A stretch of DNA of 64,000 bases from an uncultured Planctomycetales bacterium. GTDB lineage: Bacteria > Omnitrophota > Gorgyraeia > Zapsychrales > JBDRMG01. Below are positions 5,821-33,183 of the stretch, one piece after another. Position 1 is the first letter of the stretch. Each line of letters opens with the position of its first letter. Below the pieces are notes generated by a model. That model was given only the letters and a program-made list of their open reading frames with translations, was not told where the DNA came from and searched no databases. A program made the translations under genes and the position numbers. The stretch is from the NCBI GenBank assembly GCA_964478715.1, contig CAYZIY010000004.1, forward strand, positions 43,351 through 107,350, given 5' to 3'.

Positions 5821-6003
5821 TTACCTAAGGTTTAACTTTACCGTTTTATAAAAAAACCCATATTCGACTCGCGAATATGGGCTATAAATTTCCAATCAAA
5901 AAAATTAGAACTATTTATACAATAGTATAAACATTTATTCCGTGGTTTTACATAATTAATTGTCATTCCGTGGCTTCCCTTCCTGTTGGCCAGACAGTAC
6001 GGG

Positions 6004-6422: not shown

Positions 6423-7313
6423 TTATCGAATCGCGCTATTAAGACTGCCAGCGGGATTTCTATGGAAGAAATCCATCAATATGGGGCCGGCCACAAGAAT
6501 AGCCACAACCGGAAAGATGCAGAATAGAAGGGGAACCAGCATTTTCAGGGGCGCCTTGAGAGCAATCTGTTCTCCCCTGCGAAAACGGGCTAAACGCATA
6601 TCCTCAGAAAGAATGTTAAGAGCTTCGGCCACCGAAGTCCCCATCCGATCAGCTTGAATAAGCGTACGGGTAAAGGTCGATACATCGGTGAGATCATATT
6701 TTGAAGATAAGTCTTTTAGAGCCGCTTTGCGGGTTTTACCGACATTGATCTCCTGCATAATCAAATTCAGCTCATCGGTTAAAACAGACTTTTTGGACTT
6801 TTCAATCACCCACTTTAAGGCCAGCATAAAATCCAGCCCGGCATTGACACACAGCGCCAGAAGATCGATCATATCAGGAAGTTCTTTAATAATTTCGTTC
6901 TTTATTCGCTTAATCTTGGCCTTGAGCCAAATTTCCGGAAACATATAACCAAAAACAAAACAAAGCAAACCCCAAGCCATAATGAAATCGGGATTCTTGG
7001 GATAAAAAATGATCATGAGGATAATAATAAGAAGCTCCTTGATCAGAAGAAACTCCTCAGGAGTCAGGTTCACCCTCGCCACAGCAATATCCTTGGCCAT
7101 ACGCTTGCCCAGAGGACCAGCGCAAATCGGCTTATTGAAGGCGGCAACCGCCCGGGTAATCTGTTTGATTAAAGGAGTCTTTCTTTTCTCGACGGGAGCA
7201 TGCGGATCGATAGGACGCAAACGCGGCCTGTTTTCCACGTCAATGAAAGCCGTCACAAAAACCGTCAGGCAAATAATCGAGCTGAATATCAATAAAGTAA
7301 TTGCGGTAACCAT
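6423..7313 (-). CDS. tadC: Tad pilus inner-membrane platform protein TadC (GspF/T2SSF family).
   Basis: 296 aa with multiple TM segments and a GspF-like cytoplasmic region (…DELNLIMQEINVGKTRKAALKDL…). It is the second of two adjacent T2SSF-like genes, and its start abuts the stop of the preceding gene (shared 7313). Confidence 0.75.
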   Translation of the reverse strand: MVTAITLLIFSSIICLTVFVTAFIDVENRPRLRPIDPHAPVEKRKTPLIKQITRAVAAFNKPICAGPLGKRMAKDIAVARVNLTPEEFLLIKELLIIILMIIFYPKNPDFIMAWGLLCFVFGYMFPEIWLKAKIKRIKNEIIKELPDMIDLLALCVNAGLDFMLALKWVIEKSKKSVLTDELNLIMQEINVGKTRKAALKDLSSKYDLTDVSTFTRTLIQADRMGTSVAEALNILSEDMRLARFRRGEQIALKAPLKMLVPLLFCIFPVVAILVAGPILMDFFHRNPAGSLNSAIR

Positions 7314-8170
7314 TAAAAATCCTTGAATTTGCTGATTTTATAAATCAAAAACATCCCGATCAGCTGAAGACAGCTGGCCAAAACAAGCAGATTCTTCCCC
7401 TGCTGGGTTTCCAGCATGACATCAAAGAAATGCTTGTTGGTGGAAAGAACGATCATCAAAAAGCCGATCGGCAAAGCGCTCATAATGATTCCCTGGAGTT
7501 TGCCCTGCAGAGTCAAATTCCTGAGATTCTCTTTGATTTTATTGTTTTCCCGGATGGTGGTCACGATGCGGTTAAAGATCACAGGAAGGTTTCCTCCGGT
7601 TTCCCTGGCCAGAAGAATGGCCGTAATCAGCTGGTGGAGCGCGTTTGATGGCACCCGTTCATAAAGCCGGCTGAACGATTCCTCCAGAGAAACTCCCATC
7701 TTATTTTCTCCCAATAAGATGCCAAACTCCTGGCTGATCGGAGGCGGCATCTCTTCATTGACCACCTCCATGGCCTGAATAATGCTTAAACCTCCTTTCA
7801 GCGAGCTGGACATGATCATAAGGGAATCAACCAGTTGATTCTGAAATCTTTCTTTTCTCTGCTCGGCAAGCATTTTGACATAGATGCTGGGGCCGATGAA
7901 GCCCAAAACCACGCCGGCGACAACGCCGATAAGCCGAAAGGCGGGAAAAAAATGAAACCCGGCCAGACCCAAAAGAGGCGGTCCTAATGAAAAAAGAAGA
8001 ATCACTTTGGTGGGTTTAACCCGGACAAAAATCCGATCCATATCATCCACCAGGGACTCGGAACGCTTACGCTGCGCCGAAACATAAAGACCCGTGGCCG
8101 AGGGGATAATAATATAGGCGATTAAGGCCGCCGAAGCAAAAACCAGAGTGAGGATAACAACCAGAAGCAT
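7313..8170 (-). CDS. tadB: Tad pilus inner-membrane platform protein TadB (GspF/T2SSF family).
   Basis: 285 aa, TM-rich, with a T2SSF-like motif region (…LLGENKMGVSLEESFSRLYERVPSNALHQLITAILLARETGGNLPVIF…). It is immediately upstream of tadC. Confidence 0.75.
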   Translation of the reverse strand: MLLVVILTLVFASAALIAYIIIPSATGLYVSAQRKRSESLVDDMDRIFVRVKPTKVILLFSLGPPLLGLAGFHFFPAFRLIGVVAGVVLGFIGPSIYVKMLAEQRKERFQNQLVDSLMIMSSSLKGGLSIIQAMEVVNEEMPPPISQEFGILLGENKMGVSLEESFSRLYERVPSNALHQLITAILLARETGGNLPVIFNRIVTTIRENNKIKENLRNLTLQGKLQGIIMSALPIGFLMIVLSTNKHFFDVMLETQQGKNLLVLASCLQLIGMFLIYKISKFKDF

Positions 8171-8220: not shown

Positions 8221-8652
8221 TTAAAGAACGCCGGCGCAGCAGGCATCGCAGCAGCGGTCGCATTTGATAAAATCCCCTGAGGCGCAATCTACATCACCGC
8301 AGGCCGCGGAATCCCATAGAGTATAAAGCATACAGCTTTTGCGGCAATCATCATAACATTGCTGGTAGTCATCGGCATCGTACCATTCATTATTAAAGGG
8401 ATTGAGCGCTTCTTCATCAATGATTTTATCGGGATCATACTGCATGCCCTGGCCGAAGATATCGCCGGTCATTTTCCAGCGGCCGGCAAACCCCCGGACA
8501 ATGAATTTCTGCATGGTTAAAACGGCTGCTAACAAGAGCGTTAAGAAAACCGAATATTCCAAAATAGCACTGGCCTTAGATTGTTTGAAATTCCTTAATA
8601 ACATGAATGGGTTTACTTTCTTTAAAAAGGATTCGCTCCGTCTTTGCCGCAA
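8221..8652 (-). CDS. Flp/TadE-like prepilin N-terminus fused to a small Cys-rich C-terminal domain.
   Basis: …KQSKASAILEYSVFLTLLLAAVLTMQKF… fits the [GA]/xxxxEY-hydrophobic Flp leader. The C-terminus is CYDDCRKSCMLY…CGDVDCASGDFIKCDRCCDACCAG. The true start may be the internal Met (MLLRNFKQSKAS…, about 8604), because 8622-8652 overlaps the upstream gene. Confidence 0.5.
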   Translation of the reverse strand: MRQRRSESFLKKVNPFMLLRNFKQSKASAILEYSVFLTLLLAAVLTMQKFIVRGFAGRWKMTGDIFGQGMQYDPDKIIDEEALNPFNNEWYDADDYQQCYDDCRKSCMLYTLWDSAACGDVDCASGDFIKCDRCCDACCAGVL

Positions 8653-11600
8653 GGAACAAAATGAACCTGAAAACCATTGCTGAAGCTAAAGGGCCACCTG
8701 TTCTGACGGAAACTATAATCCGCGCAGGTGTCTGACATCACGCCTTTCTTTAATAATCGCGAAGCCGCATCAAAGCAGGGTGAGCAATTGGACTTTTCGA
8801 CCACATATCTACCGGACAATTGATTACATGTCTGATCGAATCCCCAGCTAAACGCACCGCCACCAAGCGGATCCGCGGGGGTAGAAACACCGTCATTGTT
8901 AATCATAAACGATCCGTCTTCGCTTTTGTCACAATACGTTTCAATCGCGGCAATATCAGCCGCCGTTGATCCCTGCTGGGCCGGATGGCGGAAAATAAAT
9001 TTCCACAAGGGCACATTATTGGCAAATTTCAAGGAGAGATCCCGGTCCTGATCATAAGTGATCACCCGTGATTTGACCCGCCCGCCTTGGAAGCAATCTT
9101 TGGCAGCATCGAAACCGCTTAAATTATCATCATCGCAATGGCTTTCTGGATAAGCGTAGCTGTCCAGCAAGGTGTAACACCGGCTCATCCCCCGGTTTTT
9201 GTTATAGGTTTTTATCCACGGCCAGCGGGGCTCGGCCAATTCCTCTTTGCGGGAACATTTGCCGGCGCATTTTCCTGGCATCGCCGCCTGGGACTGGACT
9301 AAATGCCAGTATCCTTTGGGGTCTTTGTAACCGTAAATCACCCAGGGAGCCAGTTTAGCCAGTTCATAGCGATTATTTTCCTCCAAATCTTTCCAATACT
9401 TAATAATATCGTCTACTCTACCGTCATTGAGCAAGCCATCTATTTTATTCATGGCTGTTTGAAGCTCATCAAGTTTCTCCTGGGCCTCATCGCGGACACC
9501 TTGGAGATAATCCCTGCGGATTTCAAACATGCGGGCTTCTTTCAAAAGATTAAACATGCTAAAGAACAAAGCATCAAAATATGTTCTATCGGGAATATTA
9601 TGCGGAACCATGCAATATTCATAATTATCCGCGTCAGGAAAAGAATCCGGATTGGAGATCCCGATGGGATTATTAGACCAGCAATCGTCTCCGCAAGTAT
9701 TAAAACAATAATCGCCGGTGCCGGGATCGCTCCACGCGCATTTGATCATGCAATTATAGACGATCCCCGCTCTTTGAACCCGGTTAGTGATTTGATTATC
9801 AAGGCAGTTAATAATACCCGGTAATGTTTGGCCGTTACAGACCGCCGGAGAGCCGGGATCATTAAATGCGACAGAATAACTCCCGACGCCGTTGGCCCAT
9901 CCGTTGATGTAACGATGGATTTTATCTATACTTTCACGTAACTCCATCAGCTTTCCGTCGTTGGAATCAAGAACGCTCATCGCCTCAGCAATCCAGGTTG
10001 AGAATTTCGCGTGCAAGCGCTCCGGCGTTTTATTTAAAATACTTTTGGCCCAGTCGATAAACTCATCAATCAGAACGCGGGAATAATCGGTATTATCCTC
10101 AACCCAATAATGCCATCCGCCGGGTGGAGGGCATGACCAACTTGTCAGGTCCTGACCCGGATCTTCCCAAGCGCAGTCATAATCCCAATCTTCGGGATCG
10201 TGATCGACCAACTGCCGCGCGCACAGCCAACCATTGTGACAGTCCCGGTCGCAGTGCTTGCCCGGGCAATCATTCTGATAAGGAAAATTCACAGAACAAA
10301 AATCATCCACGCCTTTTTTCCAGAAAGGAGGCTCTTCACTCTCGAGATCCGGACATTCGTTTTGCGGAATTTCCAAATCATCCGCATAATGAAAATTATC
10401 CGTGAGATTATTAGTAATACAGCAGTTGGCGGGATTCCAGTCATTGAAATGATACTCATCAATGGAGCCAAACCCGCAAGTGGGCGCCGTAGAAGCTGAA
10501 GTGACAAAATAAGAATCGGCAAAATCAAAGGCAAAAACCTGCGGACCGGAATCTGTCGGTAGAGTAAAGCTTCCATTGAGATTCAGATTACCGCAGTCCG
10601 GATGATAACTATGACACCAGTCGCACTCATACGTTCGATCTTCGGGCACAGCCGGAGGCCCCAGACCGACCGTGCCGGATTGACCGTCGTCAGGCAGATT
10701 CCATTTCTGATACTCTTTCGCCAATTTCCAGAAATAGGGATAAAGGATGCCTTCCGCATCCTCTTGTCGCCAGAAACCATCCACAGAAGCTGGATCGATA
10801 TTGATCTCATAATCATCCGAAGGACCGGCGGGGTTTAAAGGACTGGTCTTTTTATCCTTGCGGGTATCACCCCTCCAGTATCGATTATTATCATCCCGCC
10901 CGACGAACTCCCGAAAAGACACGAATTGCCCCGCTCCGGGATTATTGTTGTATTTATTCTCAGCGTATCGATCATAGACATTGGGCCAGTCATGATCCGG
11001 GCAATCAGTTGAAACCCCGCATTCGTCCGGCCCGCCGGTATCACAGCAGCTCGGACGGAGATTGGGCTCATCGGCAATCGGTGGTAAAACATCAGGCCTC
11101 AGCCCGGAATCTCCTTTAAAGGTATTGTTGTAGCTGGGCTCGCTGGGATAAGTCTTCAGTTTTCTAAAAAATACTATTTTTTTTCCGAATGGCGTAGTTA
11201 TTTTTTCTTCAAACCAGGTTCCAGTTCTACCCTCTGTCTTGGGAAGACAACAACAATTGCAATAGGCAGGTTTGGGGTCTTCACAGCATTCATGCTTGGG
11301 ACCAGCGTCCGGACAATAATTCCCGACCGGATCCCACAAGCCCCAGTTATCATTGACACCTTTCCATTCTTTTAATAAAAACTCTCCAATGGCTTTCTGA
11401 AATTTTTCAATCGCTTCTATCCGCGAATCAGCTCCCACCAAAGCCAGGCGGGAAACACGCTCATGCATATGATAGGTGAGGCGAGAAACTTTATCGTCAG
11501 TGGCATCAGGCCCCCACATCCCGTCCATGTCCATGTCCATAAAGTCGATCATCTTCTCCTGGTCCATCACCGCGTTTTGCAAGCCCAGCATCACACCACG

Positions 11601-12149
11601 CTCTAAAAATCCATCAACAATATCCAGGTCAATAGCTTCCAACATTTTGTTCCACTGATCGGTAATGCCGGGCTCGATCTCGGTTAAAGAAATACTTATC
11701 GATATAGCAGTAGCAACGGCTGCTATGATAATCCCCACCGCTAAAGAGGCCCCGGAGCCGCCGGTAGCAATCGTTACAATAACGGCCAGGATGACGCTGG
11801 CAATAAAAGTAACGACCGCCGTAAAGACATCGGTATGCTTGCAGGCCGTGAGATCGTCTCCGAACTCTTCGTCGCCCGCGTGTTGATAATAATACTCCGC
11901 GTAAGAAGCCATTTCCGAGGCCAAGAAAGCGGCCGCCTGATTGCTGGCTAAAGTGGCGGCTGTTTTGGACTGATTGATCCGTCCCAGATTGAGCGTGGCC
12001 GCGAAAAAGATCAGAGCTACCGCGAAAACCAAAACAAGAATCACCGCTACCTGGGCCCGCCTGGAAAGCAAGCTAGAGGATTTTGAAACAACCTTTCCAT
12101 TTATTTTACGGGAATGTCTTTTGATAAGATGGTTAAATATTTGAAACAC
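8622..12149 (-). CDS. TadG-like pilus-associated giant protein (1175 aa) with an extremely Cys/Trp/Asp-rich extracellular region.
   Basis: The N-terminus …LLSRRAQVAVILVLVFAVALIFFAATLNLG is TadE/G-like, followed by a second hydrophobic segment. The remaining roughly 1000 aa carry dozens of Cys in CC, CxC and CxxC clusters (CCEDPKPAYCNCCCLPK, CDWCHSYHPDCG, CPGKHCDRDCHNGWLC) plus W/D/P-rich stretches. It sits between the TadE-like gene and tadB in the operon. Confidence 0.6.
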   Translation of the reverse strand: MFQIFNHLIKRHSRKINGKVVSKSSSLLSRRAQVAVILVLVFAVALIFFAATLNLGRINQSKTAATLASNQAAAFLASEMASYAEYYYQHAGDEEFGDDLTACKHTDVFTAVVTFIASVILAVIVTIATGGSGASLAVGIIIAAVATAISISISLTEIEPGITDQWNKMLEAIDLDIVDGFLERGVMLGLQNAVMDQEKMIDFMDMDMDGMWGPDATDDKVSRLTYHMHERVSRLALVGADSRIEAIEKFQKAIGEFLLKEWKGVNDNWGLWDPVGNYCPDAGPKHECCEDPKPAYCNCCCLPKTEGRTGTWFEEKITTPFGKKIVFFRKLKTYPSEPSYNNTFKGDSGLRPDVLPPIADEPNLRPSCCDTGGPDECGVSTDCPDHDWPNVYDRYAENKYNNNPGAGQFVSFREFVGRDDNNRYWRGDTRKDKKTSPLNPAGPSDDYEINIDPASVDGFWRQEDAEGILYPYFWKLAKEYQKWNLPDDGQSGTVGLGPPAVPEDRTYECDWCHSYHPDCGNLNLNGSFTLPTDSGPQVFAFDFADSYFVTSASTAPTCGFGSIDEYHFNDWNPANCCITNNLTDNFHYADDLEIPQNECPDLESEEPPFWKKGVDDFCSVNFPYQNDCPGKHCDRDCHNGWLCARQLVDHDPEDWDYDCAWEDPGQDLTSWSCPPPGGWHYWVEDNTDYSRVLIDEFIDWAKSILNKTPERLHAKFSTWIAEAMSVLDSNDGKLMELRESIDKIHRYINGWANGVGSYSVAFNDPGSPAVCNGQTLPGIINCLDNQITNRVQRAGIVYNCMIKCAWSDPGTGDYCFNTCGDDCWSNNPIGISNPDSFPDADNYEYCMVPHNIPDRTYFDALFFSMFNLLKEARMFEIRRDYLQGVRDEAQEKLDELQTAMNKIDGLLNDGRVDDIIKYWKDLEENNRYELAKLAPWVIYGYKDPKGYWHLVQSQAAMPGKCAGKCSRKEELAEPRWPWIKTYNKNRGMSRCYTLLDSYAYPESHCDDDNLSGFDAAKDCFQGGRVKSRVITYDQDRDLSLKFANNVPLWKFIFRHPAQQGSTAADIAAIETYCDKSEDGSFMINNDGVSTPADPLGGGAFSWGFDQTCNQLSGRYVVEKSNCSPCFDAASRLLKKGVMSDTCADYSFRQNRWPFSFSNGFQVHFVPCGKDGANPF

Positions 12150-12176: not shown

Positions 12177-12455
12177 TCAATAATGAATCATGTTAAGCTT
12201 TTCAAACTCGTAAAAAATGGGATTGGTCTGCTTCATGGGTCCTTCATCACCTTCAAGAAGGCCCCAGTCTTCCTCGATCCCCTGGGTCAATTGATCATCG
12301 TGAGATTTCCGGCCGCTGGCCAAGCTAGCCCCGGCCCAGCGAAAAGCCATCACGCAGGCATAAATTAAAATAAGAACGATGATAAAGCTGAAGGTGAATT
12401 CGATCATCACTTGAGCTTTTCCTGTTTTGATTTTTGCTTTCAAAGACAATAACAT
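12177..12455 (-). CDS. tadE: TadE-like minor pilin / pseudopilin.
   Basis: 92 aa; …KTGKAQVMIEFTFSFIIVLILIYACVMAF… has the Flp/TadE leader with E at +5 followed by a TM helix. Confidence 0.6.
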   Translation of the reverse strand: MLLSLKAKIKTGKAQVMIEFTFSFIIVLILIYACVMAFRWAGASLASGRKSHDDQLTQGIEEDWGLLEGDEGPMKQTNPIFYEFEKLNMIHY

Positions 12456-12467
12456 TAATCCTCATCC

Positions 12468-13910
12468 TTATTGAATCGGCATTTGGTCATCACTGACATC
12501 GACCGTCCATCTGTGACCGCCGCGATCCTCGATCCGGCTGCGGATATAAAAAACTTTTTGCTCTTCATCGAAGCAGTTTTTAAACATATTGGCATCACTG
12601 AGACAGTCATTACAGGATTCCACATAGGGATTGACCTTATAATTAGGAACACCCTCACCTACGTCCCAACTTTTCCCCGTCCCATTGCCGCACAGGCGCC
12701 CGGTATCATTACTGAGCTGAAATTTGCGCTCAATCAAAGACAACCGGTCGGTCATGCGGGTGTTGCGCACCACCTGGCCGCCGGCCGCAACTAATTTTCC
12801 CTCTTCAATGCGCAGCAGTGTCCCGTCGCGGGTTTCGGTATAGATTCTGGTCTCATCCATCAGGCCCGGCTTTTTCTGATCCGTTCCCCCGGGTTCAGCC
12901 GGTGTCGGCCCTCCCACATAGTCATAGGTATTATAGGTTTGATCATAATCGCCTTCCTGCATATCCAAAACCCAGGCATATTTGACGATCCCTGAACCTT
13001 CACACCCGTATATTGAAGAAGGAGAAGAGGAATACTGCCACGGGGCTGTCGTATTAAACTGAGCCTGATTAGTGTCTTCCAGGCCGAACACTTTTTCTTC
13101 TTTCAGGTCTCCGTCGACATCGTAACTCAGCGTAGCGCCTTCCTCAATAAGAAAATTCTCTGTCAGGCCTGGAACCTTGCGCCATTGCCAGGCCATTCGA
13201 TTGGGATACATGACATCGCCGTCTCTATAAATGAATCCCCCATAATGTATTGTTTCTCCTGTTGCGCCGTTGCGATTATAATCAAATCTTTCTGTGTCGT
13301 TTGAATCCCAGTCCGCGCTCACTCCTGCCGGCCCGGGAATTTTCGTATAAAAAACAGGACAATCGAAGCCCGCGCATTCCCCGGCTTCCATCGAATCGGG
13401 AACAAAGACAGAATCCGGATGTTCCGTGCACTGGCCTTCATCATCCGCAAAACAATAAATCCGATAGGCGGCCACGCTTAAAGGGAAATGCTCGCCGTTA
13501 ACATATAAATCCATCACCGGCACTTCGTCATCCTTTCCGAATTCCGCCGGCATCATCAATTTGTTGGTCATACTGCCGCCGCCGCCAAACACATAAGCGC
13601 TGCGGGCTTCGGGACCGTATTTGCCGCTGCTGCCGGTCACATCAACATCCTTGCGGTCCTCGATCACCAGAACGCTGGCCATGATGCGGGAGGAATTCTC
13701 TGCCTTCCCGGAAGAATCAAGCTGCCAGGAAGAATGAAAAGACTTTGTTAAAGCCAGGCGCGTCGCTTTCATCCAGTGGTTTTGCACATTATTGCTGTGG
13801 CTGGCGTAGCGGATCAACAGCCCCAGCATAAAAAGCAAAATCACGCCGAAAGCGGCGAGTTCGGTGGCGGTTTGGGCTGATAATAATTTACGTTTTTTTC
13901 GATTTCTCAT
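12468..13910 (-). CDS. TadF-like pseudopilin with a large (about 430 aa) C-terminal extension.
   Basis: The N-terminus KRKLLSAQTATELAAFGVILLFMLGLLI has a TadE/F-type leader. The C-terminal region is Gly/Asp/Tyr-rich with scattered Cys. It lies immediately downstream of the Flp array. Confidence 0.55.
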   Translation of the reverse strand: MRNRKKRKLLSAQTATELAAFGVILLFMLGLLIRYASHSNNVQNHWMKATRLALTKSFHSSWQLDSSGKAENSSRIMASVLVIEDRKDVDVTGSSGKYGPEARSAYVFGGGGSMTNKLMMPAEFGKDDEVPVMDLYVNGEHFPLSVAAYRIYCFADDEGQCTEHPDSVFVPDSMEAGECAGFDCPVFYTKIPGPAGVSADWDSNDTERFDYNRNGATGETIHYGGFIYRDGDVMYPNRMAWQWRKVPGLTENFLIEEGATLSYDVDGDLKEEKVFGLEDTNQAQFNTTAPWQYSSSPSSIYGCEGSGIVKYAWVLDMQEGDYDQTYNTYDYVGGPTPAEPGGTDQKKPGLMDETRIYTETRDGTLLRIEEGKLVAAGGQVVRNTRMTDRLSLIERKFQLSNDTGRLCGNGTGKSWDVGEGVPNYKVNPYVESCNDCLSDANMFKNCFDEEQKVFYIRSRIEDRGGHRWTVDVSDDQMPIQ

Positions 13911-13929: not shown

Positions 13930-14241
13930 TCAATAATTCGGGACATTGGTCTGGCCTGTTTTTGTTTCGGTGGCATAGGCCGAGTCTTTCTTTTTCGACC
14001 AGTAGCTTCCAGCTTCCTCCTGAATCGACAATTCGGACACACTGTTTCCGACAGTGGTAAAAGTGATGTTGCTCACCGCGACCGTCGGATCGTATTGATC
14101 GCCGAAATTATCTATCTGCCCTCTCCAGCGACCCTGAATCCCGCGCTTGATATAAATGGTCATGGCCAGCAGAGCGCCGGCCACGACAATGATAAGAATC
14201 GAATATTCAAGCGTTGACTGGGCTTTTCGTATGCATTTCAT
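13930..14241 (-). CDS. flp: Flp-family pilin paralog 7 (103 aa).
   Basis: MKCIRKAQSTLEYSILIIVVAGALLAMTIYIKRG: prepilin motif A/QSTLEY plus a hydrophobic helix. RBS AAGAGG is upstream. Confidence 0.65.
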   Translation of the reverse strand: MKCIRKAQSTLEYSILIIVVAGALLAMTIYIKRGIQGRWRGQIDNFGDQYDPTVAVSNITFTTVGNSVSELSIQEEAGSYWSKKKDSAYATETKTGQTNVPNY

Positions 14242-14281
14242 TTTATCTAACCTCTTACTTGCGCGGCTTATCTCTTTCGCG

Positions 14282-14632
14282 TTAATACGTGCGGTTCGTT
14301 AATCCCATATTCACGATCGAAGAGCTTTCTTCTTCGGAAGAATCTCCGTAAATATAATCGATCGCGCCCCCCGGGCTTTGCAATAATTGTTTCCCCTGAG
14401 TATAACGGACAGCGGAATAGCTCTCTTCAATATAGCCGCTGGTTTCATCGATCTGCTGTTCGGCGCATTGCTGAATGCCGACCTGATCCGATGCCATTTT
14501 GATGGTCGCCTGGACACTGCGCATCAGAAAAGGGCGCATTAAAATTAAAAAGGAACCCACCACGCCGGCCACCAGAAGATATTCCATCAAGGATTGGGCT
14601 CTGTTATTAAAATGTCTCGATATTTTTCTCAT
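14282..14632 (-). CDS. flp: Flp-family pilin paralog 6. Start refined to the internal ATG at 14632; the track ORF is extended upstream with no pilin context.
   Basis: MRKISRHFNNRAQSLMEYLLVAGVVGSFLILMRPF from the ATG at 14630-14632. The leader is A/QSLMEY. Confidence 0.55.
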   Translation of the reverse strand: MRKISRHFNNRAQSLMEYLLVAGVVGSFLILMRPFLMRSVQATIKMASDQVGIQQCAEQQIDETSGYIEESYSAVRYTQGKQLLQSPGGAIDYIYGDSSEEESSSIVNMGLTNRTY

Positions 14633-14633
14633 A

Positions 14634-15005
14634 TTAATCGGCCTCACCGGGCGGCGCTGTTTCTCCCTCGGATATGACGGAAGTCGTGTCTGTGTCCGCG
14701 CCCTCATACTCTTGTCCTGTAGCCAGCGGAAACAATTGATCGATATCTTGGGTTTGCTGTTTGATCTCGCGAGTGGAATTAACATAATACGGCTCGTACT
14801 GATCAACGAAATCACCCGCGGATCCGGAAACATAAAAAGCGGTTTTGGCATCGGCGAAGGAGCGGTCATGGGCTCCTTTCATCGCCGCCATGAAACCGCG
14901 CTGGACATAGACGCTTATTCCTGTAATCGCGGCCACGACCAAAGCCAGCAAAATCGCCTGTTCGCTGATAATCTGAGCCTTTGTTTTCTTAATTCCTTTA
15001 AACAT
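14634..15005 (-). CDS. flp: Flp-family pilin paralog 5 (123 aa).
   Basis: MFKGIKKTKAQIISEQAILLALVVAAITGISVYVQRG; the C-terminal tail is acidic and Thr-rich. Confidence 0.6.
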   Translation of the reverse strand: MFKGIKKTKAQIISEQAILLALVVAAITGISVYVQRGFMAAMKGAHDRSFADAKTAFYVSGSAGDFVDQYEPYYVNSTREIKQQTQDIDQLFPLATGQEYEGADTDTTSVISEGETAPPGEAD

Positions 15006-15171
15006 TCTACGCCTTATTTATATTAAAGCTTGTTGATAATTGAAGTCAACATTTAATACTAATATTAATAATTCTGAAAGAAACTGCCGAAAAAACTGGC
15101 CTGCCACAATATCTTCCTCCCGGCAGGCCAGTTCTTCTCATTCTTTGATCAACGTGTACTCGACAAACTGA

Positions 15172-15504
15172 TTACTCTGTCTCCGATCCCCAGTATTCCT
15201 GCTGGACATTGATGAGATTAGCCGAATAAGTGACATTCGTCCATTCATCATCCAGAAGCCGGGATTCTGTTTGTCCGTCTATTGTAGTTTCGTTGGAATG
15301 GGTTTGAGTCGTCGTTGATCGGTAGTATCTGGTATTGCCAGGAGAAAACTGATCACCGATATCATCAGTGGCCTGGCGGTAACGTCCCTGAACACCTCGT
15401 TTAATATACATTTGCATAGAGAGCAAAGCACCTAAGACGACAATAATCAAGATGGCGTATTCTAAAGTGCTCTGCGCCTTTTTATTCCGTAAGAATCTTA
15501 ACAT
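15172..15504 (-). CDS. flp: Flp-family pilin paralog 4 (110 aa).
   Basis: MLRFLRNKKAQSTLEYAILIIVVLGALLSMQMYIKRG. RBS GGGAGGTG lies 8 nt upstream of the ATG (plus-strand 15510-15520). Confidence 0.65.
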   Translation of the reverse strand: MLRFLRNKKAQSTLEYAILIIVVLGALLSMQMYIKRGVQGRYRQATDDIGDQFSPGNTRYYRSTTTQTHSNETTIDGQTESRLLDDEWTNVTYSANLINVQQEYWGSETE

Positions 15505-15560
15505 GATTTTATTTCACCTCCCTAAATAAAATATATCAACACAGATCATCTGCTGTCGGC

Positions 15561-15896
15561 TTAATTGCCATTGACATCCGTGGTCAATGTATAACCGTCA
15601 CTGGCTCTTTTAGTATAAGTTGTTTCACCCACTTCTGTTTTATCCGCATCATAATCCTGATACTGAGTAGCATTGCGTTCCTGTTCGTATACTTTCACAT
15701 GATAATAGGGCTCGTATTGCGTAGTTGCGCTGCCCATTTCTGTTGACATTTCGTCTGTCTTGCCTTTAACACCGGCATTGATCGCGCGGGTCACATAGAC
15801 CTGCATCCCGGTGATCGCGCCGACGACAAGGGCGATGAGAATGGCGTATTCCGCCGTGGACTGCCCTTTGATTTTCTTTTTCAACTTAATTAACAT
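15561..15896 (-). CDS. flp: Flp-family pilin paralog 3. Start refined to the ATG at 15894-15896; the track start at 15905 is a GTG inside the RBS.
   Basis: MLIKLKKKIKGQSTAEYAILIALVVGAITGMQVY: canonical G/QSTAEY. RBS AGGAGGTG (15903-15910) lies 6 nt before the ATG. Confidence 0.65.
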   Translation of the reverse strand: MLIKLKKKIKGQSTAEYAILIALVVGAITGMQVYVTRAINAGVKGKTDEMSTEMGSATTQYEPYYHVKVYEQERNATQYQDYDADKTEVGETTYTKRASDGYTLTTDVNGN

Positions 15897-15945
15897 TGAT
15901 TTCACCTCCTATGAAAAACCATAACAACATTCATTAGCTTTTTGA

Positions 15946-16152
15946 TTACGTACCGTTCTTAGGCGACAAGGGCCGCGAACCGGCCAAACGATTGGCCATG
16001 GTCGACATACCATTAGCTGTTGACCCAACGGTATTCTCCAGAGCACTTTGGAATAATCCGCCTTCAACCATAACACCAATAATCACAATCACAACGCCCG
16101 TAATCAAGATAACGTATTCCAGCGTACTTTGTCCTTTTCTCTTTTTTCTCAT
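15946..16152 (-). CDS. flp: Flp-family pilin paralog 2. Start refined to MRKKRKGQ…
   Basis: MRKKRKGQSTLEYVILITGVVIVIIGVMV. RBS GGAGGTG (plus-strand 16160-16166) lies 9 nt upstream. Confidence 0.65.
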   Translation of the reverse strand: MRKKRKGQSTLEYVILITGVVIVIIGVMVEGGLFQSALENTVGSTANGMSTMANRLAGSRPLSPKNGT

Positions 16153-16210
16153 TTTAGTTTTCACCTCCTGCAAAGTCGTCTTGATAACCCTGATTACTCA
16201 GGGATGAATG

Positions 16211-16366
16211 TCACTTATCTCTGGCTTCCTCTTCTATCATTTTCTGGGTTGCCTGAATCGAACGATAGGCATAGGTGCTCATGGCGATCACAGCTGCAGA
16301 AACAATAGCAACAACGATAGAGTATTCAATCAGGTTTTGTGCTTGTCTTTTTTTTATTCGTCTCAT
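16211..16366 (-). CDS. flp: Short classical Flp pilin paralog 1 (51 aa). It is under 60 aa and so is absent from the ORF track.
   Basis: Hand-translated reverse complement: MRRIKKRQAQNLIEYSIVVAIVSAAVIAMSTYAYRSIQATQKMIEEEARDK*. Leader A/QNLIEY. RBS AGGGAG is upstream. This is the first gene of the array. Confidence 0.6.
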   Translation of the reverse strand: MRRIKKRQAQNLIEYSIVVAIVSAAVIAMSTYAYRSIQATQKMIEEEARDK

Positions 16367-16805: not shown

Positions 16806-19199
16806 TTATCCTGAGTGACATTTGAAAAATATTTTTTTGCCCCGGGAAATTCTAATATCGCGCTCATTGATTCGTCTGATCGCATATTTAAGGTCTTGCG
16901 CATAGCCATAATTCTCAGGTATAATTAGAGTCACAATGGTTAGATCTCCGGATTCTTGCAAAGAACCCTCAAGGTCATAAAAACGCTCCTTGATGGTTGA
17001 AAAATCCAGCGTTTGACAGGAATCAGGAAAGAAATGTCTCTGACAGTAGTGATTCAGGGCTGACAACAGGAATTCGATGATAGTCCAGAGATCAGTCCAT
17101 CCCCCCAAAAGATTATATTGCCCTATGCCGCTGAAAAGAGGAACTCTCTCTGGCGAAGGAGCCATCATAAAATCCTTAAATGAGGGCCTCTCCACTTTTG
17201 ATCCAAAGTCTTCAAATCCTTCCTTAAAATTCGGCCAATGCAAAATATAATGACTAATGACATCTTGAATGGACATATTTTTTTCTGTGCTGTTCGTAAC
17301 AATGGCTATATTTGGAAAATCATTATCCTTTTCGCGAATAAAAGCAATTCTGAGTTTTATTTTTTGTCCAATCAGAGGCTGATCTATAAAATCGGTTATT
17401 TGGGAATAAATAAATTCCCTTTCTAATCCTTCTATGAAAATTCTCTCCTGGGTTCCCGTGTCTTTGCTGATGTATTTCTTGAACCCTTCCTGCCATGGCC
17501 ATGCTCCGGCAATGAAGCTTCTTTTCTTCTTAGGAACAGTTTTGAACTGAGCTATTAGATCTTTTTGTCCATTGTGAATGCTAACACTGGATATTGTTTT
17601 TTGAGAAATGTTTTCAAAAGCCCAGACAAATTCAAAGAATTCTTTGGAGAAATCATTATATCCGGGAATATTTTGTAAGACGCAAGGATAATTATTGCTG
17701 ATAAAACGTTTTGAAATAATTTCAAGCGCTTTATCAAAACTCTGACAAAATCCAGAATGGACAGTATTTTCATCCCAGATGCTATGACATTGTGTATCAA
17801 TACATAAAACTGTCCCGTCACTCAACTGCAGTTTAATATAGCTCGCCTCGGAAAAGACTTGGCTATATTCATTGGACATTTCCAGAGAGAGATTCCTTGG
17901 ATTATTGATATTCTCAACAAAATGAAGAAGATTTTCAGCTTCAATAGGCTTTTCAAGAGAATTCAAAACCCATAATCCTTTGCCTTTGTAATTCATGATT
18001 TCTTGAGTCTTATCCATACCAAAGGCACGCATATAAAGAATAATTTCGCTGGCCAGATTGACATCCGAAGCGGAAACAGAGCTGTATTTGCTTAGGAGTC
18101 CTCCTAAAATCGAATACGGAGATAAATCATTTTCGGCCGCCTTAAGAAAGAAAAAGCCCATATGATCAAACAACGCTTCTTTGGGAGTTAAGGAAACAAT
18201 TTCTCTGTCAAATACTGGTTCTTCTTCTGTCACAGGTTCCTGTTCTTGTGCCTGATCTTCGGGTAGAGGTTCTTTCTGCTGTCGATCTAACTCTTCCTCG
18301 GATTCTTCCGGAGAATCTTCCCGAGGTTCTTGTTTAGGTTTTTCTGGAGGCTCTTCTTGCACGCAAGAACCTTCGCCTTTTTGTAAGGATTCTTTTGTTT
18401 CCCGCTTTGAACCTTGTTCTGCTTCCCGGGTGAGTTCTTCTTTTTCTTGTTTCGGGATATCTTCGGATTCCAGGGGATCCGCTTCTCCTTTTTGGTTTGA
18501 TTCTTTTTTCTCTTGCGTTGGAGATTCCTCCAATAAAGAATGCTTTTCGTTTTGATCTTGCTGGACAAAGGGATATTTCAATATCTTATCATGCTCATCA
18601 GTCTTTTCTTCTTCCTTTTTTTCTTGATCATTTTCATTTCTGGACATTTCTTTTACAATATTTTCTTCTATATCCTCTTTGGACAATTCCTCTTTCTCAT
18701 GTGACCCCATTTTATCTCTGGACATTGCTTTATTATCAATATCCACCCTTTGCGGCCTCTGGACTGCTAATTCTTCCGGAGGCGTGGGCAATTCTTGCGG
18801 AAGAGCGATAGGTTTAACATCTTTGGATGTTTTTTCATGAATCATCTCACTCTGATTTTCTTTTTGAAGAGCATAATCTTTTTTTATCTCAGGCAAATGC
18901 TCATCCTGGCGATCTGCTTCAATCAATTTTGTTTCTTTGTTTTTCTCAAAAATTTCTTGCTTCTTTTCTTCCGGGATTTTGAAAGTGTCTTTCGATTTTC
19001 GGCTTTTTGATCTGCGGCCAACCGGAGAACTCAAATTGGACTCTTTTAAAACACTGTTGACTGAAGATTTTGAAACCGGAATCGAAAACTGAATTTGAAT
19101 AAGATCTGATATTTTACGGCAGCTTAGTTTGGGATTGGATTTCTTTTTTTCAATAATGAAATCAACAACTTCTTTTTTCAGCTTGTGGATGACACCCAT
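16806..19199 (-). CDS. Hypothetical 797-aa protein with an N-terminal helix-turn-helix, a long Glu/Lys-rich low-complexity linker and a conserved-looking C-terminal domain of about 450 aa.
   Basis: N-terminus …VDFIIEKKKSNPKLSCRKISDLIQIQFSIPVSKSSVNSVLKE (HTH_23/resolvase-like HTH). Residues about 60-330 are EK/QE-rich (EEKKQEIFEKNKETK…, PEESEEELDRQQKEP…). The C-terminal half is of mixed composition with no motif I recognise. It lies between the two tad operons. Confidence 0.6.
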   Translation of the reverse strand: MGVIHKLKKEVVDFIIEKKKSNPKLSCRKISDLIQIQFSIPVSKSSVNSVLKESNLSSPVGRRSKSRKSKDTFKIPEEKKQEIFEKNKETKLIEADRQDEHLPEIKKDYALQKENQSEMIHEKTSKDVKPIALPQELPTPPEELAVQRPQRVDIDNKAMSRDKMGSHEKEELSKEDIEENIVKEMSRNENDQEKKEEEKTDEHDKILKYPFVQQDQNEKHSLLEESPTQEKKESNQKGEADPLESEDIPKQEKEELTREAEQGSKRETKESLQKGEGSCVQEEPPEKPKQEPREDSPEESEEELDRQQKEPLPEDQAQEQEPVTEEEPVFDREIVSLTPKEALFDHMGFFFLKAAENDLSPYSILGGLLSKYSSVSASDVNLASEIILYMRAFGMDKTQEIMNYKGKGLWVLNSLEKPIEAENLLHFVENINNPRNLSLEMSNEYSQVFSEASYIKLQLSDGTVLCIDTQCHSIWDENTVHSGFCQSFDKALEIISKRFISNNYPCVLQNIPGYNDFSKEFFEFVWAFENISQKTISSVSIHNGQKDLIAQFKTVPKKKRSFIAGAWPWQEGFKKYISKDTGTQERIFIEGLEREFIYSQITDFIDQPLIGQKIKLRIAFIREKDNDFPNIAIVTNSTEKNMSIQDVISHYILHWPNFKEGFEDFGSKVERPSFKDFMMAPSPERVPLFSGIGQYNLLGGWTDLWTIIEFLLSALNHYCQRHFFPDSCQTLDFSTIKERFYDLEGSLQESGDLTIVTLIIPENYGYAQDLKYAIRRINERDIRISRGKKIFFKCHSG

Positions 19200-19823: not shown

Positions 19824-20168
19824 TTAGGGTTTTAATGCGAGCTGGTCGCCGCATTCTGTTTGCGTTGCGTCGATGACGCCCACGGGCAGCTCGATCACAT
19901 ACGAGGCTTTAAAGAAAATCGGACTCACGCGGAAGGGTTTTATCTTTCTGCACAGGCCCGCCACACGATGATCAGAATCAGCAAAAACCGCATCAATAGC
20001 AAATTTCATAAAAAACATGTGGATGCTGTTACAGTTTTCGATCAAAAGGGCCTGATTTGCGCGGATCGTTTTCCGATTCAAAAGACCGGTCATTCGTTGA
20101 ACAAAAGATTTGGCGATTTGCACATCGTCCGCCAGGAGTGTCGATTTGTCTTGATTGATAATGACCAT
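19824..20168 (-). CDS. DUF192 (COG1430) family protein.
   Basis: 114 aa; …ADDVQIAKSFVQRMTGLLNRKTIRANQALLIENCNSIHMFFMKFAIDAVFADSDHRV… matches the DUF192 pattern (R.GLM.R..L…GMLF.F…MKN..IPLDI.F.D). It is the last gene of the cpaB-secretin-cpaEF operon. Confidence 0.55.
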   Translation of the reverse strand: MVIINQDKSTLLADDVQIAKSFVQRMTGLLNRKTIRANQALLIENCNSIHMFFMKFAIDAVFADSDHRVAGLCRKIKPFRVSPIFFKASYVIELPVGVIDATQTECGDQLALKP

Positions 20169-20177
20169 CGAGGGAGA

Positions 20178-22334
20178 TTAAGCGTTTTTGGAGAAGATTG
20201 ATTTTTTGATATTGATCCCGCGCCGCACAAAATCTTCATAGCAAATAGGAACATAGCCTGTGGGCCGATAGTCTCCGAGAACCATTCCGTTTTCACCGAT
20301 TCCTTTTTGCGCGAAAACAAAGACATCTTTTAAATCGAGTTCGCCCGAGCTTAACATCCCGCAGACCTCGGTGATACCGGTAATTTTTCTGGTCCCATCA
20401 GAAAACCGGGACACATGAACAATTAAATCAATCGCGGTAGAGATCATTTCATACATGGCGCGGATCGGCAATTCCACCCCGCTTAAAAGCATCATCGAGC
20501 TCATGCGGATCAAAACATCGCGGGTAGAATTCGCATGCAAAGTTGTTAAACTGCCGTCGTGACCGGTGTTCATGGCCTGAAGCATGTCCAGAATTTCAGG
20601 ACCGCGGCACTCGCCGATAATAATGCGATCGGGACGCATGCGCAAGGTATTGATGAACAAATCGCGGATCGATACCCGCCCTCTGCCTTCCACGTTAGGC
20701 GGCCGGGATTCCAAACGGGCCCAATGACTTTTCTTAAGTTTTAGCTCAGCCGCGTCCTCGATGGTAATAATGCGCTCCTCATCGGGAATAAATTGGGAGA
20801 TGACATTCAAAAGGGTTGTCTTACCCGCACCGGTTCCGCCGGAAACAACAATATTTTTCCGCGATAAAACAGCCGCCTGGATAAAATCCGACATCGAGAG
20901 AGTCAAACTTTTAAACTGATGCATCAGATCATCGATAGTGTAACGTTCCTGGCCGAATTTTCGGATGGTAAGCATCGGCCCGCCCAGAGAAAGCGGCGGG
21001 ATGATCGCATTAATCCGCGATCCATCAGGCAAACGCGCGTCCACCATCGGAACAGACTCATCGATCCGCCGGCCCAAAGGCGCGATAATCCGCTCGATCA
21101 CGCTGCGGACCTGACCATTAGAGATAAACTTCTTGCTCGTCAAAACCAGTCTTCCGTTTTTTTCAATATAGATCTCATCTTTATTATTGACCATAATATC
21201 GGTAATTTCATCATCGGCCAGAAGGTCTTCCAGGGGGCCCAAGCCCAGTGTCTCATCGGCGATTTCTTTGATCAATCGTTTTCTCTCTTCGTGAGAGGCA
21301 ATCATGGCGCCGGCTTCCTGAATTAAGAGTTCCCCGACGATCTTTTCGGTAGTGGTGCGCAAGGCTCTGGCTTTTTGGGGGTCATTCAAACTCTCGGCAG
21401 ATATATTACGCAAATCGAGTTTATCAACCAGCTTTTCGTGGATGCTTTTTTTGAGCTTGGATATCTCATCTTGCTGTTTGCTGTAGGGCGTAATTTCTTT
21501 GGCGGCTTCGCTGAGTCCAAATTTCTTCCAAAATTCATCGACCTGCGGAAGATCCTGGGTCGAACGTAATTTTCCGATCTCGGTTCCCGCGACAAAAAAT
21601 TCCGGCTTGGTCAGCTCTAATGCCAGCTTCTTGAACGATTCGCTCACCTTAGCCTTGGGGCTGTCGATCACGCAAGGCACGCCGCGGTTTAATGCCATCC
21701 CTACAGCGCGCCCGTCGGAAGGAAGATGCGCCACAATTTCGCAGGGCAAGGCTGAGCTCACTTCCTGCCAGGCCACCCCCCCGCGGGATTCCGAGCGGTT
21801 TAAAATGATCTTAACCATTTTTAAGGGAAAATGGAGGCTCTGCAAAATATCCAGACTCCAGCGGGTCTGATAAACCGAAAGGATATCGGGAGTGACCACA
21901 AGAAGAATTAAATTGGAATGATCAAAAATCGTCACCAATGTTTCCGAGAAGGCCTTGCCGACATCCATGACCAGATAGTCGTATCCGGCGGCCGCGCTTT
22001 TTAAAAACGGCTTGATATTATCGGGTGTGATCAATCCCACCTGGCGGGTATGGGTCACGCCGGGCAGAAAATCTAAACCCGAAGTGTGTGAAACAACATG
22101 TCTTTTGATGATCTCGGGATTGACGGTATCTTTGAGTTGAGAAAAGAGGTCCACCGCCGCGTAGCGGGGAGTGACATTCAGCATCCGGGCCATGTCTTGG
22201 CCGGCCTGAAAATCAAAATCCACCAACAAAACTTTATGGCCTGTCAAAGCCAGAGAAACAGAAAGATTAACGGATGTGAATGTTTTTCCCACTCCGCCTT
22301 TATTGCTAAAAACAGAAATCGTTCGCGCGCTCAT
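20178..22334 (-). CDS. cpaEF: Fusion protein: a CpaE/TadZ-like ParA/MinD ATPase domain (N-terminal about 250 aa) plus a CpaF/TadA secretion ATPase (C-terminal about 460 aa).
   Basis: N-terminal deviant Walker A SVFSNKGGVGKTFTSVNLSVSLA. The C-terminal half has the T2SSE/VirB11-type Walker A VVSGGTGAGKTTLLNVIS, a Walker B/Asp box (RIITIEDAAEL) and His box (MNTGHDGSLTTLHANS). One uninterrupted 718-codon ORF. Confidence 0.85.
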   Translation of the reverse strand: MSARTISVFSNKGGVGKTFTSVNLSVSLALTGHKVLLVDFDFQAGQDMARMLNVTPRYAAVDLFSQLKDTVNPEIIKRHVVSHTSGLDFLPGVTHTRQVGLITPDNIKPFLKSAAAGYDYLVMDVGKAFSETLVTIFDHSNLILLVVTPDILSVYQTRWSLDILQSLHFPLKMVKIILNRSESRGGVAWQEVSSALPCEIVAHLPSDGRAVGMALNRGVPCVIDSPKAKVSESFKKLALELTKPEFFVAGTEIGKLRSTQDLPQVDEFWKKFGLSEAAKEITPYSKQQDEISKLKKSIHEKLVDKLDLRNISAESLNDPQKARALRTTTEKIVGELLIQEAGAMIASHEERKRLIKEIADETLGLGPLEDLLADDEITDIMVNNKDEIYIEKNGRLVLTSKKFISNGQVRSVIERIIAPLGRRIDESVPMVDARLPDGSRINAIIPPLSLGGPMLTIRKFGQERYTIDDLMHQFKSLTLSMSDFIQAAVLSRKNIVVSGGTGAGKTTLLNVISQFIPDEERIITIEDAAELKLKKSHWARLESRPPNVEGRGRVSIRDLFINTLRMRPDRIIIGECRGPEILDMLQAMNTGHDGSLTTLHANSTRDVLIRMSSMMLLSGVELPIRAMYEMISTAIDLIVHVSRFSDGTRKITGITEVCGMLSSGELDLKDVFVFAQKGIGENGMVLGDYRPTGYVPICYEDFVRRGINIKKSIFSKNA

Positions 22335-28856: not shown

Positions 28857-29222
28857 TTAAAATAATGAATCGACCTCCCGGATCAGCTTATCGCTTTCGA
28901 CGGGCTTAATCAAGACTTTATCGAACCCAAAATGAAGCATTTTCTGGGCTTGATTCTTAGAGAGAACTCCGGTCATCATGATCACCTTTGTATTTTTTAA
29001 ACTCTTGCTGGCTTTCAACTTTTGACAAAAATCGATTCCGCTTTCTTCATCTAGAAGGTAATAATCGACAAGCACAACATCCGGTTTATGCGCTTTGCAA
29101 ATGGTCCACGCCCCGGACACTTTTGAAGCGCAAAATACTTCCCAACCCGCTTCACTGAGAATTTCCGCAAAGCCTTTACGAATCGATTCCTCATCATCGA
29201 CAATTAAAATACTTTTGTTCAT
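28857..29222 (-). CDS. Single-domain response regulator (CheY-like receiver).
   Basis: SILIVDDEESIRKGFAEILSEAGWEVF…KPDVVLVDYYLLDEESGIDFCQKLK…VIMMTG. Confidence 0.75.
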   Translation of the reverse strand: MNKSILIVDDEESIRKGFAEILSEAGWEVFCASKVSGAWTICKAHKPDVVLVDYYLLDEESGIDFCQKLKASKSLKNTKVIMMTGVLSKNQAQKMLHFGFDKVLIKPVESDKLIREVDSLF

Positions 29223-29244
29223 TTTTGACCCGATGTCAACGACC

Positions 29245-33165: not shown

Positions 33166-33183
33166 GACCTCATTCAGAATGGT

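Follow-up and report, generated by a model that had tools for sequence, protein, structure and literature searches.

Tandem pilin-type genes in the Tad locus of an Omnitrophota bacterium: orthology, predicted cleavage site and expression signals

Omnitrophota are widespread, uncultured and ultra-small bacteria with a presumed predatory or parasitic way of life. The main genomic clues to host attack come from the Tad locus of the phylum and the giant genes adjacent to it. Large pilin repertoires are already known for the Tad systems of predators: the Tad-like Kil system of Myxococcus xanthus comprises one major and 14 minor pilins with exchangeable tips (PMC12075869), and four flp genes are present in Bdellovibrio and six in Halobacteriovorax (PMC5430801). 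In Omnitrophota, a Tad locus is likewise known; its expression is reported for V. archaeovorus, and the TadB and TadC proteins of the phylum are reported to group with those of Bdellovibrionales (PMC10066038). The present work concerns a 64-kb stretch of contig CAYZIY010000004.1 (64,000 nucleotides, hereafter the window), where seven consecutive pilin-type genes lie within such a locus.

West-Roberts et al. (2023; bioRxiv 10.1101/2023.11.21.568195) reported a conserved secretion locus that precedes giant genes, and mentioned "many small genes with class III signal peptides" there. In the accessible part of that preprint, one sentence is devoted to these genes, and their number, order, orthology, G/A site and expression signals are left unresolved. 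The locus is very likely the same as that of the window, so the existence of the small genes is not new in itself. The new elements are the division of the array into seven (or eight) orthologue groups in a set order, the recognition of "long Flp-like" families of approximately 100 residues without a curated model, the G/A polymorphism combined with an obligatory Gln at position +1, and a conserved pattern of a hairpin and Shine-Dalgarno (SD) sites. The "many small genes" thereby become defined targets: a fibre subunit, tip subunits and a peptidase that takes Gly or Ala before an obligatory Gln.

The window belongs to a bacterial chromosome near oriC (dnaA, dnaN, gyrB, gyrA, yidC and parAB are present), and the closest relatives of its Tad ATPase are found in metagenome-assembled genomes (MAGs) of Candidatus Omnitrophota (64% and 51% identity). 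With a probability of approximately 0.7, the seven genes encode part of a conserved multi-subunit pilin set, in which minor or tip pilins accompany the subunits of an abundant fibre. The set would belong to a Tad-type filament of Omnitrophota that serves contact with the host or prey and may be coupled to the neighbouring giant protein.

Pilin genes and their orthologues

The sequence-only reading had placed seven consecutive minus-strand genes between 13930 and 16366, and all seven open reading frames (ORFs) are present there with the lengths it gave them (Table 1). Each product carries a basic leader of 7–12 residues followed by [G/A]↓Q-x-x-x-E-Y (with Gln in place of Tyr in pilin 5) and approximately 20 hydrophobic residues, which bears out the common leader and helix of that reading. 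The Flp-type processing motif (G↓XXXXEY) together with a hydrophobic segment is recognizable in 7/7 products, its variants being Ala at position −1 (five pilins) and EQ (pilin 5). The predicted mature proteins comprise 42 residues in pilin 1, 61 in pilin 2 and 96–113 in pilins 3–7; the mature length of the essentially helical Flp/Fap subunits is about 40–60 residues.

A strict pattern combining leader charge, [GA]Q...E[YFLQ] and a hydrophobic run was applied to the ORFs of the window and to dinucleotide shuffles. It was matched by 11 ORFs, all on the minus strand within 8221–28747, and by none in 100 shuffles. Since each paralog also has orthologues elsewhere, the motif is not a product of chance. 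The leader is carried, besides the array, by an eighth small pilin, by the 92- and 480-residue proteins and by both members of a Cys-rich pair, and probably by the 1175-residue protein (Table 1). The seven genes proposed earlier thus exist, but the count is incomplete, and at least 12 leader-bearing proteins belong to the locus.

Independent gene calling in two Logan assemblies (SRR7048227, SRR7048228) yielded the same seven genes. The caller starts pilin 6 15 codons late (101 residues), and the leader is lost; it is retained in the pilin 6 orthologues L086_6 and L087_6 of two related loci. Starts at an internal Met were also observed in automatic calls for the window gene of pilin 6, for 4361–4666 of locus L081 and for 151–285 and 1926–2219 of locus L085 (pilin 1 or 6). 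Such calls delete the leader with the cleavage motif, so these pilins escape motif-based surveys. As had been stated for the ORF track, pilin 1 was left out of it, because it is shorter than 60 residues, and pilins 2, 3 and 6 were over-extended.

Membership of the proteins in described families was evaluated with hidden Markov models (HMMs) at Pfam gathering thresholds. Scoring against Flp_Fap (PF04964, threshold 32.2 bits), the check suggested with the sequence-only reading, gave no significant match: only pilin 1 was matched (17.9 bits, E 0.0027), and pilins 2–7 gave nothing at E ≤ 1. The best Pfam match among the seven is that of pilin 2 to Class_IIIsignal (PF04021), at 23.5 bits just below the threshold of 23.7; pilins 7, 4 and 3 score 16.4, 15.7 and 13.2 bits, whereas pilins 1, 5 and 6 have no match to this family, and pilins 5 and 6 none to any Pfam family. 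Nothing was found for the seven proteins in an NCBIfam scan, and neither the pseudopilin signature of type II secretion systems (T2SS; G↓F-T-L-I-E, N_methyl, PF07963) nor the GspG–K families gave a match in the Pfam and NCBIfam scans. Weak matches recur among homologues. A precomputed PF04964 match exists for P0122, a homologue 65% identical to pilin 1, and another, marked as weak, for the gene at the pilin 1 position of L083 and L084; a precomputed Class_IIIsignal match of the pilin 2 orthologue in L085 is of full strength. Some homologues of pilin 3 bear the COG-based JGI name "Flp pilus assembly pilin Flp". The identification as pilins is founded on the motif, on genomic position and orthology, on these recurring matches and on the JGI name. 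The earlier designation as Flp pilins of a tad locus holds for the pilin-type genes and for the Tad machinery on both flanks, but not for strict membership in Flp_Fap.

A search of the PDB sequences with the profile of the pilin 4 family gave no match, and a profile of eight paralogs matched only weakly the N-terminus of a Geobacter-type pilin (E 0.039). AlphaFold2 predictions give pilin 4 a helix (13–52) followed by four beta-strands (58–97) from an alignment of 40 sequences (mean pLDDT 69.5, sheet 67–79), and pilin 3 a confident helix (14–54) with a low-confidence C-terminal beta-hairpin (mean pLDDT 66.5). Pilins 1 and 2 are Flp-sized and consist essentially of a helix only. For the additional 60–75 residues of pilins 3–7, the predictions suggest, at a confidence that is moderate to low, a small beta element similar to the head of other type IV pilins.

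The array was compared with those of other Omnitrophota, mainly loci L085 (GCA_964499685.1), L086 (JGI 3300037722) and L087 (GCA_028280285.1). The same gene order and seven small pilins of matching sizes are found in all three; the array is followed by proteins of 398–481, 91–113 and 1308–1443 residues, and the locus ends with TadB and TadC. The gene calls of L086 and L087 include an eighth pilin (L086_p8 and L087_p8, 59–81 bits). L083 and L084 contain the first four pilins, after which the contigs end, and in L003, a locus of a more distant MAG, the DUF192 gene is followed by eight or nine pilins.

In all-against-all BLASTP, each paralog of the window is most similar to the paralog at the same position in L085–L087. 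For pilin 4, the positional orthologues score 127–131 bits (57–60% identity over the full length), whereas pilin 7, the best paralog in its own genome, scores 71 bits. For pilin 7, the values are 75–94 bits against positional orthologues and 71 bits against pilin 4; for pilin 1, the positional orthologues score 54–62 bits. Pilin 4 is the most conserved member of the array. Its family comprises more than 860 cluster representatives with 55–64% identity over 96–100% of the length and no Pfam domain, and 26 of its columns are invariant, including DDIGDQ..G in the middle of the protein and WG near the C-terminus. In the pilin 3 family (645 homologues), QYEPYY is invariant. The named homologues of both belong to Candidatus Omnitrophota/Omnitrophica. 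A homologue search with the 51 residues of pilin 1 found only two proteins, in a procedure that relies on shared words.

DNA identity between the paralogs reaches at most 60–70% over 50 nt and long repeats are absent, so a recent tandem duplication is excluded; gene conversion was rejected on the same grounds. The comparison indicates that the seven are old, separately conserved subunit types in a fixed order and not interchangeable variants. The C-terminal tails do differ between paralogs, as had been noticed from the letters; they are not fast-evolving, however, each being conserved within its orthologue group, and that of pilin 4 highly so.

Four pilin families of approximately 100 residues, with hundreds of members each, are hereby added to those described. 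None is recognized by curated models, so annotation pipelines call their members hypothetical, and in at least one case the wrong start was picked by the gene caller.

Predicted cleavage site and expression signals

The mixture of Gly and Ala at position −1 was correctly noticed in the sequence-only reading: Gly occurs in pilins 2 and 3 and Ala in pilins 1, 4, 5, 6 and 7. Its proposal that Ala constrains the cognate prepilin peptidase is not supported. Of 240 orthologues of pilins 3 and 4, 198 have Gly and 42 have Ala at position −1, with no other residue, and swaps between Gly and Ala are seen at all seven array positions when five genomes are compared. An association of the G/A difference with particular paralogs was rejected, as the swaps occur within orthologue families. 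Ala is a tolerated, neutral alternative to Gly that happens to be frequent in the genome of the window. The cognate peptidase has to take either residue, which is tolerance rather than a paralog-specific constraint. PilD of Pseudomonas aeruginosa partially cleaves a pilin with Gly-1 changed to Ala, and PibD of Sulfolobus accepts Gly, Ala or Ser. Glu at position +5 of type IV pilins is tied to the packing of subunits in filaments.

The invariant Gln+1 is more telling than the G/A site. It is present in 7/7 pilins of the window and, like Glu+5 and Tyr+6, in 240/240 of the orthologues mentioned. The peptidase EppA of archaea requires Gln+1 (PMC4390842), and a descent of Tad systems from Epd-like pili of archaea has been proposed (PMC6668835). 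In other phyla with a fused TadZ-TadA, Flp and TadE genes with G-Q junctions are common as well.

The strong GGAGGTG ribosome-binding sites (RBSs) ascribed earlier to several genes are three in number. GGAGGTG occurs five times in the window, and three of these sites lie 6–10 nt before the ATG codons of pilins 2, 3 and 4. The three genes have a perfect, well-spaced SD of the AGGAGG type in the window and in L085–L087. In the same four genomes, the SD of pilin 1 is weaker, that of pilin 5 is almost absent, and those of pilins 6 and 7 are weak to moderate.

A hairpin with a U-rich tract follows pilin 4 in the window (Table 1) and at the same spot in L085, L086 and L087 (z-scores −4.2 to −5.7), where the sequences differ. 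It is likely to be an intrinsic terminator or attenuator. The hairpin was found by direct folding and missed by a consensus terminator scan, probably because its loop is long. A promoter-like site (15049–15020) lies ahead of pilin 5 in the window. An Rfam search of the whole window gave a single tRNA and nothing in the 440-nt non-coding stretch which separates pilin 1 from the gene of a 797-residue protein upstream.

The conserved pattern of SD sites and hairpin suggests an abundant unit of pilins 1–4 and a unit expressed at a lower level from pilin 5 onwards, which makes the differential expression proposed earlier plausible. Pilin 4 and the Flp-sized pilin 1 are the likeliest candidates for the main fibre subunit; pilin 4 is favoured by its conservation, its strong SD and the hairpin behind it.

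The Tad locus and its surroundings

A Pfam scan of the window ORFs shows that the Tad-type locus around the array is complete, with Tad machinery on both sides, all on the minus strand (Table 1). Two platform genes with one T2SSF domain each, a TadZ-like protein with a CpaF-type ATPase, and a secretin are present, the components by which Tad systems are defined by Denise et al. (2019; PMC6668835). The machine is of the Tad type (type IVc), with TadZ fused to TadA here. In a genome scan, this fusion was observed across many phyla. The order of genes from the peptidyl-prolyl isomerase (PPIase) to the ATPase is the same in L083–L087.

Table 1. Features of the Tad locus; positions are those of the window unless a related locus is named (aa, amino acids; ↓, predicted cleavage site)
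Feature	Position	Strand	Details
Pilin 1	16211–16366	minus	51 aa; 9-aa leader MRRIKKRQA↓QNLIEY; mature part ~42 aa, Flp-sized
Pilin 2	15946–16152	minus	68 aa; MRKKRKG↓QSTLEY; mature part 61 aa; GGAGGTG RBS
Pilin 3	15561–15896	minus	111 aa; KG↓QSTAEY; invariant QYEPYY motif; GGAGGTG RBS
Pilin 4	15172–15504	minus	110 aa; KA↓QSTLEY; DDIGDQFSPGN and QEYWG motifs; GGAGGTG RBS
Hairpin	15086–15136	minus	GC-rich, 16 bp, plus UUUUUU; directly after pilin 4; fold z-score −3.6
Pilin 5	14634–15005	minus	123 aa; KA↓QIISEQ; QYEPYY motif; acidic C-terminus; weak RBS
Pilin 6	14282–14632	minus	116 aa; NRA↓QSLMEY; start 1 nt past the stop of pilin 5
Pilin 7	13930–14241	minus	103 aa; RKA↓QSTLEY; kin to pilin 4 through a GDQYDP motif
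480-aa protein	12468–13910	minus	pilin-type N-terminus SA↓QTATEL; TadE-like by position; no Pfam match
92-aa protein	12177–12455	minus	pilin-type N-terminus GKA↓QVMIEF; TadF-like by position; no Pfam match
1175-aa protein	8622–12149	minus	Cys-rich; hydrophobic N-terminus RRAQVAVILVLVFAV; TadG-like; PF13400 13.7 bits
Pilin 8	8221–8604	minus	127 aa, small pilin; SKA↓SAILEY; GxxQYDP motif; Cys-rich C-terminus; identified by motif and orthologues
TadB-like platform protein	7313–8170	minus	one T2SSF domain; Pfam
TadC-like platform protein	6423–7313	minus	one T2SSF domain; Pfam
Giant ORF	1–5824	minus	N-terminal part, >1941 aa; Peptidase_C39 (residues 158–282); Pfam
797-aa protein	16806–19199	minus	acidic; no Pfam family; conserved between ATPase and array
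DUF192 protein	19824–20168	minus	COG1430; Pfam; conserved between ATPase and array
DUF192 counterparts	L003 10645–10986; L083 6397–6744; L086 6556–6912; L087 6596–6955		after the TadZ-TadA gene
TadZ-TadA fusion	20178–22334	minus	718 aa; ParA(MinD)/TadZ-like part fused to TadA/CpaF ATPase; Pfam
Secretin	22341–24047	minus	C-terminal TonB_C domain; Pfam
RcpC/CpaB	24070–24906	minus	Pfam
PPIase	24915–25871	minus	Pfam
Cys-rich pair	26231–27298; 27338–28747	minus	acidic; 355 and 469 aa; pilin-type N-terminus KKA↓QSILEF

The proteins of 480, 92 and 1175 residues resemble TadE, TadF and TadG by motif and position only. The HMMs of these families (PF07811, PF13400) gave no match for the first two, and the 1175-residue protein remains below the Tad (PF13400) gathering threshold of 22.3 bits. 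The giant ORF lies directly downstream of tadC and runs off the end of the window; it is absent from the ORF list because the list drops ORFs that reach this end. It fits the "giant genes" described for Omnitrophota.

In the examined Omnitrophota loci, the DUF192 gene is always situated between the TadZ-TadA gene and the array. The 797-residue protein has an N-terminus that looks by eye like a helix-turn-helix (HTH), a low-complexity middle rich in Glu and Lys, and a conserved C-terminal part; proteins of 579–609 residues occupy its position in L083–L087.

The two Cys-rich proteins upstream of the PPIase gene are identical in their first 41 residues (leader and helix) and share 74% identity over the first 200 residues, beyond which they diverge. 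No Pfam family was matched by either, and they may be pilus-tip or surface proteins. A response regulator, a hybrid histidine kinase of 1306 residues with multiple PAS/GAF domains and an HTH-plus-receiver regulator are encoded at 28857–33792 (minus strand). These regulators and the Cys-rich pair lie between Ldh and the PPIase gene and are absent from that place in L083–L087, where Ldh directly precedes the PPIase gene; the block thus looks like a lineage-specific insertion beside the Tad locus. At a greater distance (45326–48622, minus strand), a secreted-looking protein of 1098 residues has approximately six repeats ("NPGFE..G...W...") and two terminal dockerin-like repeats ("DISDLTYLVSYMFSGGPAPD"), and no Pfam match at E ≤ 0.001.

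Proposed assembly of the filament and likeness to known systems

From gene content and signals, cleavage, assembly, stoichiometry and function may be inferred as follows. Each product would be made as a prepilin with its short basic leader. An aspartic prepilin peptidase of the A24 type, presumably encoded elsewhere in the genome, would cut after Gly or Ala, which leaves an N-terminal Gln and keeps Glu+5. The TadZ-TadA ATPase together with TadB and TadC could then extract the hydrophobic N-terminal helix from the inner membrane and polymerize the subunits, and the filament could leave through the RcpA-type secretin. Pilins 1–4 would be made in bulk as fibre subunits; pilins 5–7, the three TadE/F/G-like proteins and pilin 8 would be minor pilins of low abundance, which prime assembly and form the tip. 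The filament could also act jointly with the adjacent giant protein. Its probable role is to attach the cell to a host or prey cell or to attack the latter, by analogy with the Tad and Kil systems of Bdellovibrio and Myxococcus and in view of the lifestyle predicted for Omnitrophota. In the locus itself, at least eight small pilins plus four large pilin-like proteins make up a set whose order is fixed and whose expression signals are conserved.

Several points weigh against the multi-subunit pilin set. None of the seven proteins reaches the threshold of any curated HMM in Pfam or NCBIfam. A prepilin peptidase (Peptidase_A24) is found neither among the Pfam-scanned ORFs of the window nor among the genes called in the related loci. 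For the putative division into major and minor pilins, the only grounds are the strength of the SD sites, the predicted hairpin and how well each pilin is conserved.

A bolder version of the same idea, which is doubtful, is that co-abundant pilins 1–4, including previously undescribed alpha+beta "long Flp" pilins of approximately 100 residues, form a heteropolymeric fibre, while a modular tip (pilins 5–8 together with Cys-rich or TadEFG-like proteins) docks the giant protein onto prey cells or delivers it. If this were true, a Tad pilus would have been turned into a dedicated device for predation and secretion in ultra-small bacteria.

The products could instead build a short periplasmic pseudopilus, similar to that of T2SS and based on Tad parts, whose main task would be to push out or present the giant C39-domain protein and the Cys-rich proteins instead of serving as a long adhesive pilus. 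This is unlikely, despite one conserved and several minor subunits standing in tandem as in gspG–K, a secretin in the locus and a giant ORF immediately after tadC. A conserved T2SS-like system ahead of giant genes across Omnitrophota is also reported in the preprint of West-Roberts et al. (bioRxiv 10.1101/2023.11.21.568195). However, RcpC, the TadZ-like domain and the two single-domain platform proteins are parts of Tad type and not of T2SS type by the definition in PMC6668835, and the N_methyl-type motif of pseudopilins was not found in the seven by the Pfam scan. In L085 and L086, a transposase-like gene follows tadC in place of a giant gene, so the linkage to the latter is not obligatory. 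A pseudopilus would, moreover, be compatible with the multi-subunit pilin set.

Far less probable is the view in which a single Flp pilin has given rise to seven copies that go on diversifying and provide antigenic or phase variation or a changeable fibre surface. As this view would have it, the paralogs of the genome have strongly different C-terminal parts, and their pairwise similarity lies mostly in the first 30–60 residues. Yet the nearest relative of every paralog is its positional counterpart in another genome and not a paralog of its own genome, gene order and sizes are conserved, and so, to a high degree, is the tail of pilin 4. Long or near-identical DNA repeats, by which recombination could be driven, are absent (at best 60–70% over 50 nt), and no invertible elements or silent cassettes were seen. 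Conserved tails, positional orthology and the lack of repeats make the antigenic variation suggested by the sequence-only reading unlikely.

Slightly less probable still, the class III signal peptide might be borrowed for membrane insertion or surface anchoring without polymerization, as in the sugar-binding proteins of Sulfolobus. Several leader-bearing proteins are indeed large, Cys-rich and unlike pilins (355, 469, 480 and 1175 residues), but the seven small ones are little more than a pilin helix with a short extension, their genes sit between those of the ATPase and the platform, and they keep invariant the Glu+5 that is tied to filament packing. Chance or unexpressed ORFs, to which the missed Pfam thresholds might point, are refuted as far as the reality of the genes is concerned by the zero matches in 100 shuffles, hundreds of full-length homologues, concordant independent gene calls and conserved gene order and SD sites.

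The multi-subunit pilin set can be placed beside several known systems. In T2SS (GspG–K) and in the minor pilin operons of type IVa pili (FimU-PilVWXE), a tandem, ordered set with one highly conserved and several less conserved subunits also occurs, and each subunit, as in the window, forms its own orthologue group; the N-terminal motif and the types of ATPase and platform protein of the window differ from theirs. The Epd pilins of Methanococcus maripaludis (EpdA–E, processed by EppA) share with the array a short leader, the Gly-Gln junction and the required Gln+1. Several pilin genes are present in each Epd system, as in the window, the best Pfam resemblance of which is to Class_IIIsignal. 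In contrast to Epd, the window is bacterial, has a secretin and RcpC, scores just below the Class_IIIsignal threshold and has no EppA-type peptidase among its Pfam-scanned ORFs.

Flp pilins of Tad/Cpa systems (Flp1 of Aggregatibacter, PilA of Caulobacter) resemble the array in the G↓xxxxEY-type motif and the hydrophobic helix, and Tad/Cpa loci resemble the window in their TadA/CpaF, TadB, TadC, RcpA/CpaC, RcpC/CpaB and TadZ/CpaE-like genes. The pilins of the window differ from them in their short leaders (7–12 residues), in the invariant Gln+1 and frequent Ala at −1, in the approximately doubled length of five members with a predicted beta element, and in the Flp_Fap HMM, which has no match in 6/7 of them and a sub-threshold one in pilin 1. 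The array lies between tadA and tadB and not at the head of the locus, and tadV is absent from the Pfam-scanned ORFs of the locus. In an unrelated uncultured bacterium (L036, 716–2651, plus strand), five tandem Flp-sized genes and a TadE-like gene were observed upstream of TadZ-TadA; multi-flp arrays of five or more thus exist outside Omnitrophota too.

Bdellovibrio and Halobacteriovorax likewise have several non-redundant, differentially regulated flp genes. Their four to six genes lie partly outside the tad locus and are all Flp-sized, whereas the window has eight small and at least four large leader-bearing genes. The Kil system is similar to the window in its Tad-type machine, its big pilin repertoire and its occurrence in a predator (a putative one here). 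Small Flp-like "adapter" pilins occur there beside large TadE/F/G-like proteins with exposed domains, much as in the window, and the peptidase for some Kil pilins is encoded outside the locus, as it would be here. The likeness is one of locus composition, and the roles assigned in the window are putative. The Kil pilins are distributed over four tip clusters and a separate gene for the major pilin, whereas those of the window form one ordered array in one locus.

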